The position numbers and the translations under genes are program-made. A stretch of 64,000 bases of DNA from an uncultured Pseudomonadota bacterium (GTDB taxonomy: Bacteria; Pseudomonadota; Alphaproteobacteria; Rs-D84): contig CALABO010000008.1 in NCBI GenBank assembly GCA_937885575.1, forward strand, positions 6,294 through 70,293, read 5' to 3'. Below are positions 4,199-58,990 of this stretch, piece by piece. The notes beneath the pieces were generated by a model that did no database searches, was not told where the DNA came from, and saw only the letters and a program-made list of their open reading frames with translations. Each line of letters begins with the position of its first letter. The first letter of the stretch is position 1.

Positions 4199-4229
4199 CA
4201 CTAACCACTAACACTTACACTAACCACTA
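4199..4229 (-). repeat. Family B heptamer tract B1 (GTTAGTG-like units)
   Basis: The minus strand reads TAGTGGTTAGTGTAAGTGTTAGTGGTTAGTG. The tract contains the TAG stop of the SPOR gene and abuts the tatA RBS. Confidence 0.85.
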
Positions 4230-5066
4230 TTTTGCGACATAACAATCAAGTCCATCGGACTTTGCATTGCGACAGAACCCATTTGCATCACCCGAAGACG
4301 CAAACGCAATACGCAAACGATATGTCGTCGTTCCGTTCGGCAATACCGCGGCCAATATCACGAACTGTTTGCCCACGAACAAGTTTTGATGTCCGGCGCG
4401 AATCTTTTTCTCGGCGGCTTCGGCGGCGGCGCGTGTGCCATATGAACCAAATTGCACATACCAACCACCATTTGCAACCTTTTGCGCGGCGGGCTTTGGC
4501 GCCGGTTTCGGTTTTGCCGGTGTTTTAACTTCCTTTGGTGCGGGTGCCGGAACAGGTTTCGGTGTCACAGTCGCACGCTCTGGATTAAACGTCACATCTT
4601 TTCTATCCTCTATCACACGAACATTTTGATTCGGTTGCGGCGCAACCTCCACCGGTTGTGGTGCGGGCTGAACAACCTGAACCGGTTGCGGTGCAACCTG
4701 GACGGGCTGTGGCACAGGCGCGGGCCGCATATCACCCACCGGCATTTGCTGCACAGGCATAGTTTGCACCTGTACCGGCTGTGGCACCGGCATCGGACGC
4801 GGCGCGGGCATAATCATTTCCGGTTCGCGTTCTTCGACCATAACGGGCGCACCAAGGTCAACTTCTATCGAAGACGATGAATTATTGCTTACCACGCGGA
4901 CAATGATAACGACCGCCAAAACGATAATTGCAACCCCAATCGCCAACAGCAACCAAGGCCGATGTGGCCGCGGCGTTACGAAAGGCACCGCATCAGGCAA
5001 ACCCTCGTCCGCCGTACCATCGGCATCGTCCAAATCCAAAAGTTCTAATTCTTCTGTATCACTCAT
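4227..5066 (-). CDS. SPOR domain-containing membrane protein with Pro-rich repeats
   Basis: N-terminal acidic tail, one TM helix, PQPVQV-type Pro-rich repeats, and a C-terminal SPOR-like domain (GGWYVQFGSYGTRAAAEAA...RLRIAF). Confidence 0.75.
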   Translation of the reverse strand: MSDTEELELLDLDDADGTADEGLPDAVPFVTPRPHRPWLLLAIGVAIIVLAVVIIVRVVSNNSSSSIEVDLGAPVMVEEREPEMIMPAPRPMPVPQPVQVQTMPVQQMPVGDMRPAPVPQPVQVAPQPVQVVQPAPQPVEVAPQPNQNVRVIEDRKDVTFNPERATVTPKPVPAPAPKEVKTPAKPKPAPKPAAQKVANGGWYVQFGSYGTRAAAEAAEKKIRAGHQNLFVGKQFVILAAVLPNGTTTYRLRIAFASSGDANGFCRNAKSDGLDCYVAK

Positions 5067-25960: not shown

Positions 25961-26042
25961 AGAAATTTCTCCTTTTTTATTATTTATGGTCAGAGAATAG
26001 AAAAAAAAACAGCGAAAGTAAAGGAAATAGTGGCGGGTGTAA

Positions 26043-26089
26043 AGTTCCCCTCCTGTGGAGGGGTGGCGCCGAACGGCGACGGGGTGGTC
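26043..26089 (+). repeat. Family A half-element A4 (right-half type)
   Basis: AGTTCCCCTCCTGTGGAGGGGTGGCGCCGAACGGCGACGGGGTGGTC, between the P1 stop and the yajC start. Confidence 0.8.
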
Positions 26090-26094
26090 TTTTA

Positions 26095-27258
26095 TCAATT
26101 ATTCACACAAGTCTTAAACTCATCGGGGTCAGTTCTCATAAAACACGCCCGCATTTTCTCTTTGGTGATTTTTTGCATACGAACACACCTTTGTTCTTTT
26201 TTGTAATAAAATTCGTTTTCTCCATCACAATCTAAACAAGCACCATTTACACCTATTCCTTTTTTTTCTAATGATTTACCACTACCACACGGGACACATT
26301 TTTTGTTAGGCCATGTTTCAAATCCATAATTTTCATTTTTACAGCGAAATTGTTTGCAGCCCCCAACAGAAACCAATTTATGTTGTGTTTCATCGTATTT
26401 AGAATCATCCCATGATGTGCACCAATTTTGATTGGTTATACTCTCGGCACATTCCGGCGCCATTACACAATCATCATGGGTGCTATTTTCAGTATATCCC
26501 GGCGCGCACAACACTTTGTAAGAATCTTTTTTTGAAAATGCTTTTGTAATAGTATTTTTATTTGCACTAACTTTCGTTGGTCCAACAATAAGCGCATGAG
26601 GTTTTATCTCAATAACTGCTAATACCACCGAATAATGGTCATTTGTTGTAGAATCGCTAAAATTCCCCTCCGGAAGCTTATTTGAACGCCCCTGATAACC
26701 ATCAAGATAATCAAAAACATCTATCTCAGATGTAATCCGACCATCTTGTTCCCCACTAAGAATTCTATATTTACCATCCAAAGGATTATTTAATTCTGTT
26801 TTATAATCGATACTCAAACCGGAACAGTCATATTCATGTTTTTCACACTTAGTACCAGACCAGCCAGATTCACACACAACCTGTCGCTTATATTCGTCAC
26901 TATCAAAGAAATCAATCCATCGTGGTTGCCCTGTTCCTGACTTATTTGTCCATGCCGCTTGCATTTGTGTCATGCCGAAACACCCACCATGTTCATAGAT
27001 TTCGTGTGCAATAACCGGGATAATAGAACCTTCATCATCGCTACTTCCATATCCAAAAGTGCCGGTTTTATCATTGTAAAAACTCGTTGGAGAAATTTTT
27101 TCGCTCACCTTGGTCGGATAGGCAAAACTATTTGACCACCCCCACGCATTTTGTATTCTGTCTGCTACCACATTAGGATGTTCATATGTACGATTCTCTG
27201 CACCCATCGCACCGCCGGCCAACATTACACCGCAAATTGCAACCATGATTTTTTTCAA
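26095..27258 (-). CDS. Secreted Cys-rich hypothetical protein (P1)
   Basis: TTG start at 27258 with an AGGGAGGA RBS. Signal peptide LKKIMVAICGVMLAGGAMGA. About 24 Cys, concentrated in the C-terminal third. No family recognised. Confidence 0.6.
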   Translation of the reverse strand: MKKIMVAICGVMLAGGAMGAENRTYEHPNVVADRIQNAWGWSNSFAYPTKVSEKISPTSFYNDKTGTFGYGSSDDEGSIIPVIAHEIYEHGGCFGMTQMQAAWTNKSGTGQPRWIDFFDSDEYKRQVVCESGWSGTKCEKHEYDCSGLSIDYKTELNNPLDGKYRILSGEQDGRITSEIDVFDYLDGYQGRSNKLPEGNFSDSTTNDHYSVVLAVIEIKPHALIVGPTKVSANKNTITKAFSKKDSYKVLCAPGYTENSTHDDCVMAPECAESITNQNWCTSWDDSKYDETQHKLVSVGGCKQFRCKNENYGFETWPNKKCVPCGSGKSLEKKGIGVNGACLDCDGENEFYYKKEQRCVRMQKITKEKMRACFMRTDPDEFKTCVNN

Positions 27259-27283
27259 TGAATCCTCCCTTGGTATCAAAACA

Positions 27284-27470
27284 AAAACCACCGAATTACT
27301 TCAAGTGGTTGGAGGTTAACGACAATTTTAGCGAAATTGTGCGCTTATTTTATCGGGAATCCCCGATATTATTCACGGCCCTCCAACCACTTTCGGTTGG
27401 AGTTTTCGTCGACCGAAATCGACATCGCTAAAAAGGGTCGTTACACCCCATCGACGGAACACCCATCGAC
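27284..27470 (-). promoter_or_regulatory. Family D conserved structured 5' leader, copy 1 (candidate cis-regulatory RNA)
   Basis: Three blocks are shared with 44652..44830 in the same orientation and position relative to a secreted-protein gene. It has hairpins H1-H3 with alternative pairings. Confidence 0.45.
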
Positions 27471-27515
27471 AATTTTACTTTAATAAATTATAAAACCGAA
27501 AAGCAAGAAGAAATT

Positions 27516-27544
27516 GTTAGTGGTAAGTGTTAGTGGCTAGTGAG
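27516..27544 (+). repeat. Family B heptamer tract B2
   Basis: GTTAGTGGTAAGTGTTAGTGGCTAGTGAG. Confidence 0.85.
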
Positions 27545-27560
27545 AAATTCCAGAGTGCAA

Positions 27561-27611
27561 AGTTCCCATCCTGTGGAGGGGTGGCCGCGAACGCGGACGG
27601 GGTGGTCTTTC
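27561..27611 (+). repeat. Family A half-element A5a (right-half type)
   Basis: AGTTCCCATCCTGTGGAGGGGTGGCCGCGAACGCGGACGGGGTGGTCTTTC. Confidence 0.8.
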
Positions 27612-27637
27612 ATAAATATAAAATTTCCGGAAAACGC

Positions 27638-27716: not shown

Positions 27717-27750
27717 ACACTAACACTAACCACTTACACTACCTACTAAC
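27716..27750 (-). repeat. Family B heptamer tract B3
   Basis: The plus strand reads CACACTAACACTAACCACTTACACTACCTACTAAC. The tract contains the mutL TAG stop (27746..27748). Confidence 0.85.
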
Positions 27751-35316: not shown

Positions 35317-35360
35317 CTCACTAACCACTCACACTAGCCACTCACACTAGCCACTAACAC
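35317..35360 (-). repeat. Family B heptamer tract B4
   Basis: The plus strand reads CTCACTAACCACTCACACTAGCCACTCACACTAGCCACTAACAC. Confidence 0.85.
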
Positions 35361-43689: not shown

Positions 43690-44625
43690 TTAATCATCTG
43701 GAAAATCCCAAAGCCAACAATAATCCGGATCATTTTCATGCCCGGTTTCATACCCGGCACAGGTGCGTTTTTTCTGGCGGGTGTCAACGGCGGCAATGGT
43801 TGCGATATTTGCGCCGTTTTCCAATTCGCCGGTTGTCGCATTATGCGTTGGCGCATTTGCGGTCGCAACCCCATTGCCCAGCGCGCCATTTGCGCCATAA
43901 TTTGCAAGTGTGTTCGGCGTGCCGGTGGGCGCGGCATTTTGAATTTCATTATGCAACGCACTATACACATCCTTTAACAGTTCCAATGAAACCAATGCAC
44001 CCTTGATATAGTTTAGACTTGTGGTTGCGTTACCACTGGTTCCACCAAAGTTTGATGTTTCATACTGTGCCAATGTTTTTGTTCCGTTGATATACAATAT
44101 AACATTATCCGCGCCGGATTTTTGGGTAAGTGGTTGCGACCCACCCGCGGTGATATAACGACGACCAACGACCCCCGAGTTCGCCCCCAAATCAATTGTT
44201 TGCCCACCGGTGGAGGCCATGAGATAGTAGATTGTTGTGCTTGTCCATGCTGCCGGAAGTTTATTTTGTTTTGCCGCTAATCCTTCTGCCACGGCACGAA
44301 CGGTTGGAACATAATTATCCATTTCGGAACCGTATGCACTACCACCATATACAGACAAATCACCCTCATCATCCGAAATTGTTTGCGCATCTAAAATACC
44401 TATCTTATTACCAACAAGTCCACTTGTAGAATCATATGTTGTAATCGCCGGCAACATAAGTTCAGGATTGCCATTAAACTCCACTAACCCGGTTGTGATT
44501 TTATCCTGTTTCGTATCGACATAGGCCTTAGATGCCACGGTTTTCTTGTCCAATTCGGTTGGTTCCGCAAATGACGGCATTGTAAACAATGTTGCAAATA
44601 CAGATAACACGATAAATTTTTTCAT
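43690..44625 (-). CDS. Secreted hypothetical protein (P2), tail-fibre/adhesin-like N-terminal motif
   Basis: ATG 44625 with an AGGGGGA RBS. Signal peptide MKKFIVLSVFATLFTMPSFA. VASKAYVDTKQDKI motif, a Gly/Asn/Thr-rich body and a C-terminal Cys-DPD-Cys loop. Confidence 0.6.
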   Translation of the reverse strand: MKKFIVLSVFATLFTMPSFAEPTELDKKTVASKAYVDTKQDKITTGLVEFNGNPELMLPAITTYDSTSGLVGNKIGILDAQTISDDEGDLSVYGGSAYGSEMDNYVPTVRAVAEGLAAKQNKLPAAWTSTTIYYLMASTGGQTIDLGANSGVVGRRYITAGGSQPLTQKSGADNVILYINGTKTLAQYETSNFGGTSGNATTSLNYIKGALVSLELLKDVYSALHNEIQNAAPTGTPNTLANYGANGALGNGVATANAPTHNATTGELENGANIATIAAVDTRQKKRTCAGYETGHENDPDYCWLWDFPDD

Positions 44626-44651
44626 ATATTTTCCCCCTTTTTTATGTAACA

Positions 44652-44830
44652 AAAAACCACCGAATTCACTTCAAGTGGTTGGAGGTTCAAGACTATGTTC
44701 CGAGAAAATAGTGGGTTTATTCTTTATATTCACCGCCCTCCAACCACCCTGGGTTGGAGGTGTTTTTTGTCCCCACGGACATCCGGAACCACGGGTCTTG
44801 ACACCCCATCGATGGAACACCCATCGATAC
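44652..44830 (-). promoter_or_regulatory. Family D conserved structured 5' leader, copy 2
   Basis: Same three blocks as 27284..27470: AAACCACCGAATT.ACTTCAAGTGGTTGGAGGTT, ATTCAC.GCCCTCCAACCAC...GGTTGGAG and ACACCCCATCGA.GGAACACCCATCGA. Confidence 0.45.
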
Positions 44831-44894
44831 AAATATTTTATCAAAACATGGGTATAAAAAACAAGCGAAAAAAGTATCGGCAACAAAAAACGGG

Positions 44895-44994: not shown

Positions 44995-45020
44995 TAACCA
45001 CCAGCCACTAACAATTACAC
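44994..45020 (-). repeat. Family B heptamer tract B6
   Basis: The plus strand reads ATAACCACCAGCCACTAACAATTACAC. The tract contains the MFS TAA stop (45015..45017). Confidence 0.75.
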
Positions 45021-46205
45021 TCTTTTTCTTGCCATCAATACCGCAATCGAAATCACGCCTATTATGGCCGTCACCCACCAAACCGCCGCGGTCGTTCCAA
45101 ACACAGTAATAAATGCCGCACCAATGCCGGGCGCAATCACACTTGGCAAATTGCAACTTGTGCGAAACACGCCATAAAACTTTGTTTGCTGTGCCGGTTT
45201 TGTTCCATCAAAGAACAACAAATCATGCACCGGTTCCATCAGTGCGCCTGAAATCTGCCACAATACAAATATGGCAAGCAGTGGGAAACCGGTCGCAAAT
45301 GTCGCCCACACCGAAAACGCCGCAAACGACCCGAACCCAAGCACAAGCCAAATACTTTTTCCGAATCGCCGCACAAGGTGCCCCATAATTTCCGACAAAA
45401 TCAAATACGGCACGATACCGAAACTTAACACCAAACCCAATGTATCCTTGGTAAACCCGGCCTCTATCACGACAATCGGCACATATAAATACCGCATCGC
45501 GCGCAGCGAATAATAACCAAAGTTCACGATATACGCGCGCTTCATTCCGGGCGTTTTGAAAAATTCCATAGTATTGCGCCAAAGCGCGCGAACGGTGCGC
45601 CGCGGACTGACGGGTTTTATAACTTTGTCTTCTTGGGTCAAATGAAAATACCTAAAAAACACCCAGGCCCCCAAATAAATCGCCGATGACAAAAAGAACG
45701 CCGACCGATTACCGAATCGGGTCGCAACCATCACCGCCAACATCGGCGCGAACAGCGCACCAATATTCATCCACAAATGATACCGCGAATTTAGCCGCGC
45801 CATACCAACATCACGCGAAAAATCTGACATAAACAGTGGCACCAACATCGCGGTAAGCGTGATTGCAAAACCACTGGTGTAATCAAGGACGATAAATGTT
45901 CGTGGCAATACTGAAAAACCCATCATCGCATAGCACACGACCAACATTAACAGTGCAAAATAGAAAACCTTGGTCTTGGAAAATTGGCGAAAAATCTCGT
46001 GCGCGAACAACGCGACAATCATACAGAACACCGAATAAATCGCGACATAGACACCAACAACCGCGGAATTCATAAAGATTTCGAGTATAACCAATGAATA
46101 AACGGCATTATAAATTCCATCGGCAAATCCGGTAAAAATCCCAAGATTCGCGAACGAAAACCCACTAAGCGAACTTCGCATAGAGATATATTTATCTTTG
46201 GCCAT
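45015..46205 (-). CDS. MFS transporter
   Basis: About 396 aa from ATG 46205 (GGGGGGAAAG RBS), with about 12 predicted TM helices. Confidence 0.8.
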   Translation of the reverse strand: MAKDKYISMRSSLSGFSFANLGIFTGFADGIYNAVYSLVILEIFMNSAVVGVYVAIYSVFCMIVALFAHEIFRQFSKTKVFYFALLMLVVCYAMMGFSVLPRTFIVLDYTSGFAITLTAMLVPLFMSDFSRDVGMARLNSRYHLWMNIGALFAPMLAVMVATRFGNRSAFFLSSAIYLGAWVFFRYFHLTQEDKVIKPVSPRRTVRALWRNTMEFFKTPGMKRAYIVNFGYYSLRAMRYLYVPIVVIEAGFTKDTLGLVLSFGIVPYLILSEIMGHLVRRFGKSIWLVLGFGSFAAFSVWATFATGFPLLAIFVLWQISGALMEPVHDLLFFDGTKPAQQTKFYGVFRTSCNLPSVIAPGIGAAFITVFGTTAAVWWVTAIIGVISIAVLMARKRV

Positions 46206-46233
46206 TAAACTAACTTTCCCCCCTACCCTGATA

Positions 46234-46244
46234 AATATATCACA
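46234..46244 (-). promoter_or_regulatory. Extended -10-like element TGTGATATATT upstream of the MFS gene
   Basis: The motif lies on the minus strand about 30 nt upstream of ATG 46205. Confidence 0.4.
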
Positions 46245-46267
46245 AAAACGACCGAATCGCAAAAAAT

Positions 46268-46297
46268 GGTTAGTGTTAATGTAAGTGGTTAGTGGTA
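46268..46297 (+). repeat. Family B heptamer tract B7
   Basis: GGTTAGTGTTAATGTAAGTGGTTAGTGGTA. Confidence 0.85.
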
Positions 46298-46320
46298 TCT
46301 GGAATTTGTTCGTAATTACT

Positions 46321-46399
46321 AACACCAAGCCGGGGCAAAGCCCCGGCGCAGTCTCGGCGTAGTCGCGTCACCGCTGTGCGGTGACGGACGAAGACGGAT
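46321..46399 (-). repeat. Family C structured repeat, copy C2
   Basis: AACACCAAGCCGGGGCAAAGCCCCGGCGCAGTCTCGGC...GTCACCGCTGTGCGGTGACGGACGAAGACGGAT, with two perfect 8-bp hairpins. Confidence 0.8.
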
Positions 46400-49930: not shown

Positions 49931-49961
49931 CACTAGCACTGACCACTTACACTAACCACTA
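49931..49961 (-). repeat. Family B heptamer tract B8
   Basis: The plus strand reads CACTAGCACTGACCACTTACACTAACCACTA. The tract contains the yebC TAG stop (49959..49961). Confidence 0.85.
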
Positions 49962-50675
49962 ATTTGCGCCGGTAAACACCTTTTGCACATCGTCATTATC
50001 GTCCAACGCGTCAACCAGGCGTTCAACCTTGTCCCATGTTTCTTCGTCCACGTCCACCGGCATATTCGGAACCCATGTCAATTCCGCATTTTCCGGTTCG
50101 CCCAAAACATCGGCAATCTTTTTCTGCACATTCATAAAGTCATCAGGTTTGGTTGTGATAATAAATCCCTCGTCAGTTTTTTCCAAATTATCGGCATCCG
50201 CATCCATAATAATTTCCATCATTTCATCTTCAGTTTTGCCAACGGATGTCGGATAGAAAATTTGCCCAACGCGAGTAAACATAAACGCGACACTGCCCTC
50301 TTCGCCCATATTACCGCCGTGCTTGGAAAAAATATTCCGCACCTCTGGCACAGTGCGCCGCGGGTTGTCGGTCAGCGCCTCTACAATAATCGGCACCGCA
50401 CCAGGGCCGTAACCTTCGTACCGCACCGCCACATAACTTTCGGTGTTTGCACCCGACGCTTTATCAATTGCGCGTTTAATATTATCGTTCGGCATAGAAT
50501 TCTTGCGCGCCTGCAAAATTGCAAGCCGCAACCGCGGGTTATTGTCCGGATTCTTGTCGCCCAGTTTCGCCGCCATCGTGATTTCGCGTGCAAGTTTCGT
50601 GAACAATCCACTGCGTGCCGCGTCGGCAAGACCCTTTTTATGTTGAATGTTGTGCCATTTGCTATGTCCGCTCAT
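49959..50675 (-). CDS. yebC: YebC/PmpR family DNA-binding transcriptional regulator
   Basis: The start is at ATG 50675 (MSGHSKWHNIQHKKG, canonical N-terminus). Confidence 0.9.
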   Translation of the reverse strand: MSGHSKWHNIQHKKGLADAARSGLFTKLAREITMAAKLGDKNPDNNPRLRLAILQARKNSMPNDNIKRAIDKASGANTESYVAVRYEGYGPGAVPIIVEALTDNPRRTVPEVRNIFSKHGGNMGEEGSVAFMFTRVGQIFYPTSVGKTEDEMMEIIMDADADNLEKTDEGFIITTKPDDFMNVQKKIADVLGEPENAELTWVPNMPVDVDEETWDKVERLVDALDDNDDVQKVFTGAN

Positions 50676-52626: not shown

Positions 52627-52661
52627 GTGTTAGTGGTTAGTGTTAGTGTAAGTGGTTAGTG
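52627..52661 (+). repeat. Family B heptamer tract B9
   Basis: GTGTTAGTGGTTAGTGTTAGTGTAAGTGGTTAGTG immediately after the mnmE TAA. It has TAG/TAA in all three frames. Confidence 0.9.
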
Positions 52662-58201: not shown

Positions 58202-58990
58202 TTAGTCCTTTTTAATCAAACGCTGATACGCTTCTTTTTTTGAAATTCCCGCACGCGCCGCCAAATCGCTTGCCGCGGCCTTGGTTGAATTTGCAACAAC
58301 ATCGTTCACGATTTCCGATATTTCCGCATCAGACATTTTGTGTTCCGGCGCCGGCGCAATCACGATAACTATTTCCCCACGTGGCGGTTCGATGTTTTTC
58401 AATTCCGCCGGATATCCGATTATCGCCTGTTCGTGAATTTTTGTTATTTCGCGCACAATTGCGATTTGCCGTTCCGGCATAACCCGCGCAATCGCATCAA
58501 TGGTATTCATAATCCGATTCGGACTTTCATAGTAAACAATCGTATGACGAATTTTGTTATCATCGCGCAGTTTTTTTTCATCAAAGAACCCACAAAAAGT
58601 GAACCTATCGGTCGGAAACCCACTAAGCACCAACGCAGATATCACCGCCGTTGGCCCCGGCACAACATATACCGGCACCCCCGCATCACGCGCCGCCCGA
58701 ACGATTCGGAATCCCGGGTCACTGATACCCGGCATACCGGCATCGGTCACAACCGCAACCGATTCGCCATTTTGAATTTTTTCTATCAATCCGCCAATAA
58801 CATCGCGCTCATTATGCTCGTGACACGACACGCGCCGCGTCTTTATGTCAAAGTGCGATGCGATTTTCGCAAAAACGCGAGTATCTTCGGCGGCGACCAA
58901 ATCGACATTTTTCAAAACATCAACCGCCCGCGGCGACATATCACCCAGATTTCCAATAGGTGTACCAACAATATAAAGCCCCGTTTGCAT
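58202..58990 (-). CDS. rsmI: 16S rRNA (cytidine1402-2'-O)-methyltransferase RsmI
   Basis: LYIVGTPIGNLGDMSPRA and AAEDTR motifs of the tetrapyrrole-methylase-fold RsmI. Confidence 0.9.
   Translation of the reverse strand: MQTGLYIVGTPIGNLGDMSPRAVDVLKNVDLVAAEDTRVFAKIASHFDIKTRRVSCHEHNERDVIGGLIEKIQNGESVAVVTDAGMPGISDPGFRIVRAARDAGVPVYVVPGPTAVISALVLSGFPTDRFTFCGFFDEKKLRDDNKIRHTIVYYESPNRIMNTIDAIARVMPERQIAIVREITKIHEQAIIGYPAELKNIEPPRGEIVIVIAPAPEHKMSDAEISEIVNDVVANSTKAAASDLAARAGISKKEAYQRLIKKD

Follow-up and report, generated by a model that had tools for sequence, protein, structure and literature searches.

Two minus-strand stretches of the analysed window (64,000 nucleotides of contig CALABO010000008.1, from an uncultured alphaproteobacterium of the lineage Rs-D84), located at 27278–27470 (copy 1) and 44648–44828 (copy 2), are copies of a previously undescribed family of structured leader RNAs of a known regulatory kind, and they were the only two members of this family found within the window. 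The element is probably a bistable conditional transcription terminator in the 5′ leader of the mRNA which, on thermodynamic grounds, would be "off" by default. As proposed in the initial annotation of copy 1, common blocks were found in the same order on the minus strand ahead of two unrelated secreted-protein genes (alignment A1; neither protein had a Pfam or PHROG match), and every element listed there was recovered at its position when the sequence was re-read. The conserved blocks of 20 nt and 27 nt occurred exactly twice each in the window and in none of 100 shuffles, and a profile hidden Markov model (HMM) and a covariance model recovered exactly the two copies (127.9 and 159.5 bits, the latter being the covariance-model score of copy 2). 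The minus-strand RNA folds had free energies of −78.4 kcal/mol (z = −6.8) for copy 1 and −69.1 kcal/mol (z = −3.4) for copy 2. The stretches between the blocks had been regarded as non-conserved spacers; comparison of the family identifies them instead as the two strands of a predicted, strongly covarying long-range helix (P1a and P1b), which encloses hairpins P3, P4, and P5. This helix, the promoter, hairpins P3 and P5, and the transient hairpins P2 and P6 were absent from the initial annotation.

Features of copy 1 and its gene, all on the minus strand (−):
27501–27506 (−): −35 hexamer TTGCTT, 18 nt upstream of the −10 hexamer
27477–27482 (−): −10 hexamer TAAAGT
27450–27470 (−): H1, 5′-terminal hairpin GUCGAUGG-GUGUU-CCGUCGAU, with covariation and many G-U pairs that fix the strand
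27435–27449 (−): G-tract GGGG, L2 (UAACGAC, 27437–27443), and CCC, which can fold locally as hairpin P2, the loop of which contains L2; L2 also provides the predicted 5′ strand of P1a, and GGGGU is able to pair with ACCUC of segment c
27425–27433 (−): S3 (UUUUAGCGA), predicted 5′ strand of P1b according to the S3/S3′ duplex test
27408–27423 (−): P3 hairpin GUCGAU-UUCG-GUCGAC
27381–27402 (−): P4 hairpin (H2 of the initial annotation), loop GAAAGU, 97.6% of cells paired
27395–27402 (−): segment a, CUCCAACC, 5′ arm of P4
27380–27390 (−): segment b, GGUUGGAG(G), in its extended form GUGGUUGGAGG, 3′ arm of P4
27339–27380 (−): P5, short stem closing the conserved GAAUA...AAUAA loop
27351–27368 (−): P5b, the middle hairpin of the initial annotation, which is present here but proved to be an optional insertion in the P5 loop, limited to a subclass
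27322–27340 (−): alternative hairpin P6, ACAAU[UUCGCUAAA]AUUGU
27326–27334 (−): S3′ (UCGCUAAAA), in the P6 loop, predicted 3′ strand of P1b according to the same duplex test
27317–27323 (−): L2′ (GUCGUUA), predicted 3′ strand of P1a from covariation and the duplex test, abutting segment c
27305–27317 (−): AACCUCCAACCAC, the sequence at the interval given in the initial annotation
27305–27315 (−): segment c, CCUCCAACCAC
27286–27310 (−): terminator hairpin AACCACU..GGUGGUU, −9.1 kcal/mol
27278–27285 (−): U-tract UUUGUUUU, directly after the terminator hairpin
27263–27270 (−): Shine–Dalgarno (SD) sequence AGGGAGGA, followed by a TTG start at 27258
26095–27270 (−), SD included: gene of a 387-aa Cys-rich protein with a signal-peptide-like N-terminus

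Features of copy 2 and its gene, all on the minus strand (−):
44648–44864 (−): complete unit, including the promoter
44859–44864 (−): −35 hexamer TTGTTT
44835–44840 (−): −10 hexamer TAAAAT
44808–44828 (−): H1
44793–44807 (−): P2/L2
44783–44790 (−): S3
44768–44781 (−): P3
44752–44760 (−): segment a
44737–44747 (−): segment b
44711–44737 (−): P5
44692–44712 (−): P6/S3′
44687–44693 (−): L2′
44675–44685 (−): segment c
44655–44680 (−): terminator hairpin, −9.0 kcal/mol
44648–44654 (−): U-tract
44631–44639 (−): SD-like sequence AAGGGGGAA, followed by an ATG start at 44625
43690–44639 (−), SD included: gene of a 311-aa secreted-type protein unrelated to the copy 1 protein

Family distribution, covariation, and gene linkage

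The family was searched for in one genome per GTDB species using the pattern GTGGTTGGAGG-N40-70-CCTCCAACCAC, and 74 loci were obtained. Sixty-nine of them came from 48 species-level metagenome-assembled genomes (MAGs) labelled Candidatus Enterousia or uncultured Alphaproteobacteria, Rickettsiales, or proteobacteria, with samples originating from ruminant, human, chicken, and mouse gut, and the five loci from unrelated taxa (L016, L021, L025, L059, and L067) were set aside as chance matches according to their record titles and flanks. Among these five, L025 had an E-value of ~1e-4 in nhmmer, L016 and L067 gave weak rows, and none was among the sources searched with the covariance model. Seven divergent copies without the searched pattern were recovered in the fetched loci by nhmmer and covariance model R1 (the E-values of which are rough), so that 76 copies were found in total in the 48 MAGs; a metagenome scan with a different anchor, the P5/P6 sequence, gave only five loci, which were added to the family. 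All relatives of the window copies were found on MAG contigs, and no viral contig matched the family pattern. The number of exact-pattern loci was five in CAJOGD01 and three in each of CACWNX01, JAZQCF01, JAFOVN01, and JAGCDW01, i.e., at least three to five copies per genome when only exact-pattern hits are counted. Uncultured gut bacteria make up Candidatus Enterousia and the order Rs-D84, and their genomes are ~0.75–1 Mb in size; they are without the tricarboxylic acid cycle, respiratory chains, and standard transporters, and their dependence on a partner is probable (PMC12306168).

The view taken in the initial annotation that the leader represents no known riboswitch or leader class was borne out by a scan against Rfam 15, which gave no matches in the window at the gathering score, only three hits of 14–15 bits, far below the thresholds, in the region 27200–27560 at E up to 10, and only tRNAs in 16 diverse loci of the family. 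Literature searches returned nothing on this RNA or on any RNA element in Enterousia or Rs-D84.

Inspection of the copies showed that L2, located after the GGGG tract, pairs with L2′, located before segment c, and that S3 pairs with S3′. RNAalifold applied to the raw MAFFT alignment returned only P3 and the b:c duplex imposed by the search; since the raw alignment recovered so little, a manually derived structure, realignment by covariance model, and an alignment-free duplex test were used. In the last of these, each 5′ strand was compared with its own 3′ strand and with the 3′ strands of the other copies. For P1a (L2:L2′), 27 distinct compensating combinations were found, with a mean energy of −6.7 kcal/mol for cognate vs. 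−1.5 kcal/mol for non-cognate strands, and up to five pair types occurred in its alignment columns. For P1b (S3:S3′), there were 58 distinct combinations with 7–10 contiguous pairs, and the corresponding means were −9.4 and −2.4 kcal/mol. P1a and P1b are the strongest covariation signal of the element.

Covariance model R1 was built from alignment A3 with a supplied structure, and its 77 hits were realigned as alignment A4. In the terminator-state structure of A4, 89.9% of cells were paired vs. 79.3% in shuffles, and the covariation score was 0.306 vs. 0.118 (none of 500 shuffles was as high, and slid controls gave 0.02–0.07), with two-sided changes in 28 of the 37 pairs; this support extended to P1a, P3, P4 (a:b), P5, and the terminator c:d. 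The score of H1 was 0.401 vs. 0.232 in shuffles, again with none of 500 as high. Hairpin P3 had 96.5% of its cells paired and two-sided changes in all five modelled pairs. One-sided changes in P4 yielded G-U pairs, two-sided changes were present in the divergent copies, and the length of the P4 loop varied in A4. The P5 stem covaried as well (GUCGC/GCGAC, GACUU/AAGUC, and others), and the most conserved unpaired bases of the element lie in its loop GAAUA...AAUAA, in which the AAU-A bases were at least 97% conserved and the GAAUA motif was duplicated. Unconstrained minimum-free-energy folds of both window copies reproduced the terminator state supported by covariation and added to it a 5-bp extension of GGGGU with ACCUC of segment c.

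The −10 box, (TG)nTAtAAT, was nearly invariant in alignment A2, and TTG-type −35 hexamers were found 17–18 nt upstream of it across the family, at the place they occupy in copy 1; each copy thus has its own predicted sigma-70-type promoter. Since the −10 box ends ~7 nt before H1, the 5′ end of the RNA is predicted at the base of H1 (near 27470 in copy 1). An SD-preceded open reading frame (ORF) on the same strand was located downstream of 69 of the 71 copies, both exceptions being at contig ends, and the distance from segment c to the gene start had a median of 47 nt (within 70 nt in 57 copies). With a promoter upstream and a gene downstream, the leader would belong to the 5′ untranslated region (UTR). 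The minus strand is the favoured RNA strand: G-U pairs are frequent, and read on the other strand they would become C-A mismatches.

Switch segments and the proposed mechanism

The alternative folds involve four segments, namely, CCUCCAACC (a), GGUUGGAGG (b), CCUCCAACCAC (c), and GUGG(UU) with the U-tract (d). Pairing of a with b together with c with d gives the terminator, and pairing of b with c gives the antiterminator. Segment c repeats segment a, b can pair with either of them, and the terminator takes its 5′ arm from the 3′ half of c. The alternatives for c are pairing with b or a split, in which its 5′ half goes to the G-tract and its 3′ half to d. The three competing pairings described initially (H2, the long-range pairing, and H3) were present throughout the family, with compensatory changes in the divergent copies, and the proposed logic of an attenuator was largely upheld. 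The 11-bp length given for the b:c pairing applies to both window copies, whereas only its 9-bp core is general, the additional GU:AC pairs being absent in the independently anchored loci.

In L050b, segment c is CCUCCAACCGCCC, b is CCGGUUGGAGG, and the 3′ arm of the terminator is GGGCGG, so that an A-to-G change in c is matched both in b and in the terminator arm. In L046b, c ends with CCGC and the terminator arm is GCGG, while in L018b and L064b all the segments have been rewritten together (a CCAAUCCC, b GGGGGUUGGA, c UUCAGCCCCC, and d GGCGG). A change of the terminator stem pair from A-U to G-C was also found in divergent copies. Because of these three-way compensatory changes, it was concluded that a:b, b:c, and c:d have each been kept; the place of segment c in both states also agreed with the unconstrained and constrained folds.

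Covariation was also found in two local hairpins. The stem of P2, GGGG[L2]CCC, shows G-C to A-U changes, and the central pair of P6, CAC(U/A)AU[S3′]AU(A/U)G, is U-A in 37, A-U in 18, and C-G in two sequences. P2 and P6 overlap P1a and P1b, and for this reason, by sequence geometry, they would represent an alternative or transient fold; simultaneous formation of P6 and P1b as a pseudoknot was rejected, since a loop of 0–1 nt would have to cross a helix of 8–10 bp. When the b:c pairing was enforced in RNAfold, P2 and P6 formed and the G-tract paired with segment a, at an average cost of ~10 kcal/mol relative to the terminator state. The terminator hairpins of 68 copies had a mean energy of −9.5 kcal/mol and 7.6 U in the 9-nt tail, i.e., the family has the stable hairpin followed by a U-tract that defines an intrinsic terminator. 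Complete units with promoter, leader, and terminator but without an ORF were found in four loci (L038:5338–5505, L018:2223–2395, L064:5865–6037, and L079:4707–4847), each directly upstream of a gene-linked unit.

On this basis, the following mechanism is proposed. The leader would be transcribed from its own sigma-70-type promoter. In the terminator state, the long-range helix would be built from L2:L2′, S3:S3′, and the pairing of the G-tract with the 5′ half of c, and it would close a junction that holds the hairpins P3, P4 (a:b), and P5. The intrinsic terminator ahead of the U-tract would be formed by d and the 3′ half of c, and RNA polymerase would halt ~20 nt before the ribosome-binding site. 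In the antiterminator state, the local hairpins P2 and P6 would replace the long-range helix, and b would leave a and pair with segment c, which has the identical sequence, so that the terminator is blocked and the gene is transcribed, while the freed segment a could be captured by the G-tract. The balance would be set by an effector that targets the conserved core of junction and P5 or influences whether the long-range helix forms. The regulon would consist of genes of unrelated secreted or surface proteins and of a small helix-turn-helix (HTH)-like protein in gut symbionts with reduced genomes.

Several points weigh against this interpretation. The search pattern fixed segments b and c, their invariance in most copies is therefore no evidence, and the near-invariance of a, b, and c is imposed by the pattern; unbiased support for the switch helices comes from approximately seven divergent copies and the five metagenome loci. 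Alignment A4 was fitted to the supplied structure, although both kinds of control (slid and shuffled) and the alignment-free test are in agreement with it. In silico, the antiterminator is disfavoured by ~10 kcal/mol, and reaching it would take a strong effector or kinetic control. At −7 to −12 kcal/mol, the terminator stems are of modest stability, and a simple consensus terminator scanner did not call the leader terminators because of their bulge and loop size. It should be noted that the orphan copy L038b has at its end a separate strong terminator (CCCAGG/CCUGGG followed by U7), with no overlap with segment c. The 5′ end and the premature 3′ ends are predictions from sequence and fold.

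Alternative explanations and known RNA systems

If the element is a conditional terminator, its effector may be a small molecule or a factor acting in trans. The former case, in which a ligand such as a second messenger or a metabolite of the gut or host occupies the four-way junction and the P5 core, stabilises the long-range helix, and promotes termination as an OFF switch, is a plausible but doubtful special case of the proposed mechanism. It is consistent with the features generally expected of riboswitches, since the leader comprises a conserved covarying structured domain in what would be the 5′ UTR and, computationally, a mutually exclusive terminator/antiterminator platform; its large RNA has a conserved unpaired core (GAAUA...AAUAA and an A-rich junction), several copies per ~0.9-Mb genome precede unrelated genes, some units are in tandem as in some riboswitch classes, and, like classical riboswitches, the leader has its expression platform directly next to the 3′ strand of the long-range helix. 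Among the closest known systems are the transcription-terminating riboswitches, e.g., c-di-GMP-I (cyclic diguanylate; GEMM-I, RF01051), which are also cis-acting 5′ leaders; riboswitches of this type share with the leader a covariation-supported multi-helix domain and a long-range closing helix, the 3′ strand of which abuts a terminator/antiterminator platform, as well as the presence of several copies per genome before genes of unrelated surface or secreted proteins and regulators, and tandem arrangements. The leader differs from them in that it matches none of the Rfam 15 models in sequence or structure, and in its platform, which is a duplicated strand (a = c) swapping between the G-tract and b, an arrangement that to our knowledge is unusual. 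However, no ligand can be deduced from the regulated genes, since these are not metabolic or transport genes, and the terminator state is already strongly favoured in silico in the absence of a ligand. The second case, rather unlikely in our estimation, is an attenuator in which a protein or RNA factor binds the P4/P5 region or stabilises P2 and P6 and thereby drives antitermination. Default termination, with an alternative structure overlapping the 5′ arm of the terminator, is known from the BglG/SacY ribonucleic antiterminator (RAT), ANTAR, PyrR, and TRAP leaders, LicT-type systems also terminate by default, and as in those leaders one factor could control a small regulon. A candidate factor is the small HTH-like protein, the own gene of which carries a leader variant: this weakly HTH_3-like gene of 61–64 aa is a conserved target in ~21 loci, so that autoregulation is possible, and the duplicated GAAUA of the P5 loop resembles the sites of dimeric proteins. 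Yet the HTH match is weak and suggests binding of DNA rather than RNA, neither window copy has a candidate factor gene linked to it, and neither a RAT hairpin, nor dual hexaloops of the ANTAR type, nor triplet repeats were seen in A4 by inspection, with no motif-specific search run; moreover, the antiterminator of the leader is a long-range duplex of 9–11 bp, unlike the small local hairpin of BglG/ANTAR-type systems. T-box leaders (RF00230) are similar in being multi-helix 5′ leaders of ~200 nt in which an antiterminator competes with an intrinsic terminator and termination is the default, but a Stem I specifier loop, the conserved T-box sequence, and the UGGN bulge are all missing from the leader, cmscan of the copy 1 region at E up to 10 gave no RF00230 match, and the targets of the leader, in an alphaproteobacterial host, are genes of secreted or small HTH-like proteins rather than aminoacyl-tRNA synthetase or amino-acid genes.

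Other explanations depart further from conditional termination. Action after transcription, with CCUCC of a and c masking the SD, with the structure setting mRNA stability, or with the terminated RNA of ~190 nt serving as a functional small RNA, is improbable: CCUCC is complementary to the downstream GGAGG or GGGGG SD, ORF-less units exist (L038b, L018b, L064b, and L079), and default termination in silico would make short transcripts abundant, but c is paired in both supported states, a is paired with b in the terminator state or with the G-tract in the enforced antiterminator fold, the covariation of c:d argues that termination itself is under selection, and each ORF-less unit lies directly upstream of a gene-linked one. 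It is very improbable that the element is not an RNA but a dispersed DNA repeat, a mobile element, a recombination cassette of surface-protein genes, or a plus-strand terminator. The complement of H2 with a T-run was called terminator-like on the plus strand in both window copies, and a 63-nt direct repeat flanks the copy 1 unit; against this, orientation and distance to the gene start were fixed in 69 of 71 copies, rather than inconsistent as the initial annotation had envisaged for a dispersed repeat, pairing was kept while the sequence varied (in the 27 and 58 compensating combinations mentioned above), G-U pairs were frequent, the minus-strand fold was the more stable by 10.7 kcal/mol, and the two copies of the 63-nt repeat closely follow gene stops without reaching into the element. 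A dispersed repeat or miniature inverted-repeat transposable element was rejected on account of the fixed orientation, the conserved pairing, and the absence of terminal inverted repeats at the element ends, and a plus-strand terminator or antisense reading because G-U pairs, promoter, gene linkage, and fold energy all favour the minus strand. Conserved 5′ regions are common to the variable surface-protein gene families vsp/vlp of Mycoplasma, which likewise combine a shared upstream region with many unrelated or variable surface proteins in a host-associated bacterium with a reduced genome; the leader differs in conserving pairing rather than sequence and in its fixed orientation and promoter, and no recombination sites or inversions were seen. 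Attenuation by a leader peptide, in which a short ORF beginning at the GUG after GGAGG (segment b) selects the hairpins, is the least credible of the explanations considered. The trp/pyrBI-type attenuators (1:2, 2:3, and 3:4) do have four segments of which a:b with c:d stop transcription and b:c permits read-through, a GUG follows GGAGG by 3 nt in most copies, and in copy 2 it opens an ORF of 20 codons that ends just after segment c. Nevertheless, ORF length ranged from 1 to >30 codons, 12 of 70 copies lacked the start codon, the ORF stopped anywhere from −64 to +43 relative to c, an SD-to-start spacing of 3 nt is too short, and the sequence is not conserved beyond the constraints of the RNA motifs; with no conserved ORF across the 70 copies, this candidate was rejected. 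In addition, the segments of the leader, unlike those of trp/pyrBI, sit in a much larger domain with a long-range helix and a junction.

Returning to conditional termination, a broader proposal may tentatively be made: the leader could perhaps be a new riboswitch class with a strand-exchange platform (a and c swapping between the G-tract and b), which senses a second messenger or a metabolite derived from the host or partner and serves, after initiation, as the master control for the surface and secreted proteome as well as for a small XRE-like regulator. In that event, it would operate in genomes of <1 Mb that have lost most conventional regulation, where many hypothetical membrane or secreted proteins of Rs-D84 are the likely interface with partners. 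An elaborate RNA of ~180 nt, both alternative folds of which are kept under selection, and its position before the genes of surface or secreted and small HTH-like proteins would make it a central regulatory device. As an orphan structured RNA with sequence diversity sufficient for immediate biochemistry, the leader would give access to the signal by which surface proteins are switched on in the Enterousia lineage.

Downstream genes and adjacent sequences

The proteins encoded downstream of the leader formed two main groups. Approximately 34 of them had signal-peptide-like N-termini and belonged to several unrelated families, including Cys-rich proteins, a BspA-type leucine-rich-repeat protein (weak Pfam hit), proteins of ~100 aa, and large proteins with a common unannotated C-terminal domain. 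This domain of ~110 aa, found in the large Cys-rich secreted proteins of L004, L013, L042, and L049, had no Pfam match, reads ...VERGGKCVC...TIGGxEKSVWRD..GxFNTARL.SDS.AGVVLGTVGGIVT.NLVKK.QVK.GFEDIGCYIGGQSVAG.GDEF.VGR., and may be an anchoring or sorting domain. The second group included 21 small proteins of 60–78 aa (most of 60–64 aa); six of 16 representatives matched HTH_3 weakly (best Pfam E = 2.7e-4), and the family profile matched the N-terminus of a PDB 'transcriptional regulator' with E = 7.5e-4. Other targets were clearer XRE-type HTH proteins and an EcoRI-type adenine-specific DNA methyltransferase (PF13651, E = 1.3e-122), the gene of which follows the leader in L012 (CALYRP010000113.1) and is an odd member of a regulon otherwise made up of secreted and HTH proteins. 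A PHROG search of the downstream proteins gave no meaningful match, with one marginal tail-protein hit (E ~1e-3), and a phage origin was rejected on this ground and for the lack of a viral contig with the pattern. Exact-sequence look-ups of both window proteins found no record.

The HTH-like gene was monocistronic in L001, the one locus with ORFs listed, where the order is a divergent tRNA gene, the leader, and the 61-aa gene, with a 452-aa ORF in convergent orientation beyond. A tRNA-Val(GAC) gene was found just upstream of the HTH-class leader, at ~70–90 nt, in seven of the nine MAG loci scanned (L001 (592–1123), L014, L019, L037, L043, L046, and L048), and it was not found in L060 and L072.

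Several other observations concern the sequences around the leader. The 63-nt direct repeat that flanks the promoter–leader–gene unit of copy 1 is located at 26037–26099 and 27555–27617 (87% identity), each time just 3′ of a minus-strand stop, i.e., that of the Cys-rich ORF, which ends at 26095, and that of the mutL ORF, which ends at 27746 (stop codons included); with its G+C-rich palindromes, it is probably a repetitive extragenic palindromic (REP)-like or terminator intergenic element. The motif TTAGTGGTTAGTG, often doubled, had 13 occurrences in the window with at most one mismatch, as compared with 0.42 expected, at 4199–4230, 27517–27542, 27724–27736, 35319–35357, 46282–46294, 49937–49962, 52630–52661, and 58621–58633. 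These sites lie mostly at gene boundaries or between long ORFs, with the exception of 46282–46294, inside the ORF of a major facilitator superfamily (MFS) transporter (45015–46328), and 58621–58633, inside the ORF 58202–58990. The motif also occurred between the leader terminator and the ribosome-binding site in L003, L029, L040, and L071 and is not leader-specific. The GC skew of the window was strongly negative at 1–30 kb and 40–46 kb, where long ORFs (at least 150 aa) are mostly on the minus strand, and near zero at 30–40 kb, where they are mostly on the plus strand; following the strand of the ORFs in this way, the skew therefore tracks the coding strand rather than a replication landmark.

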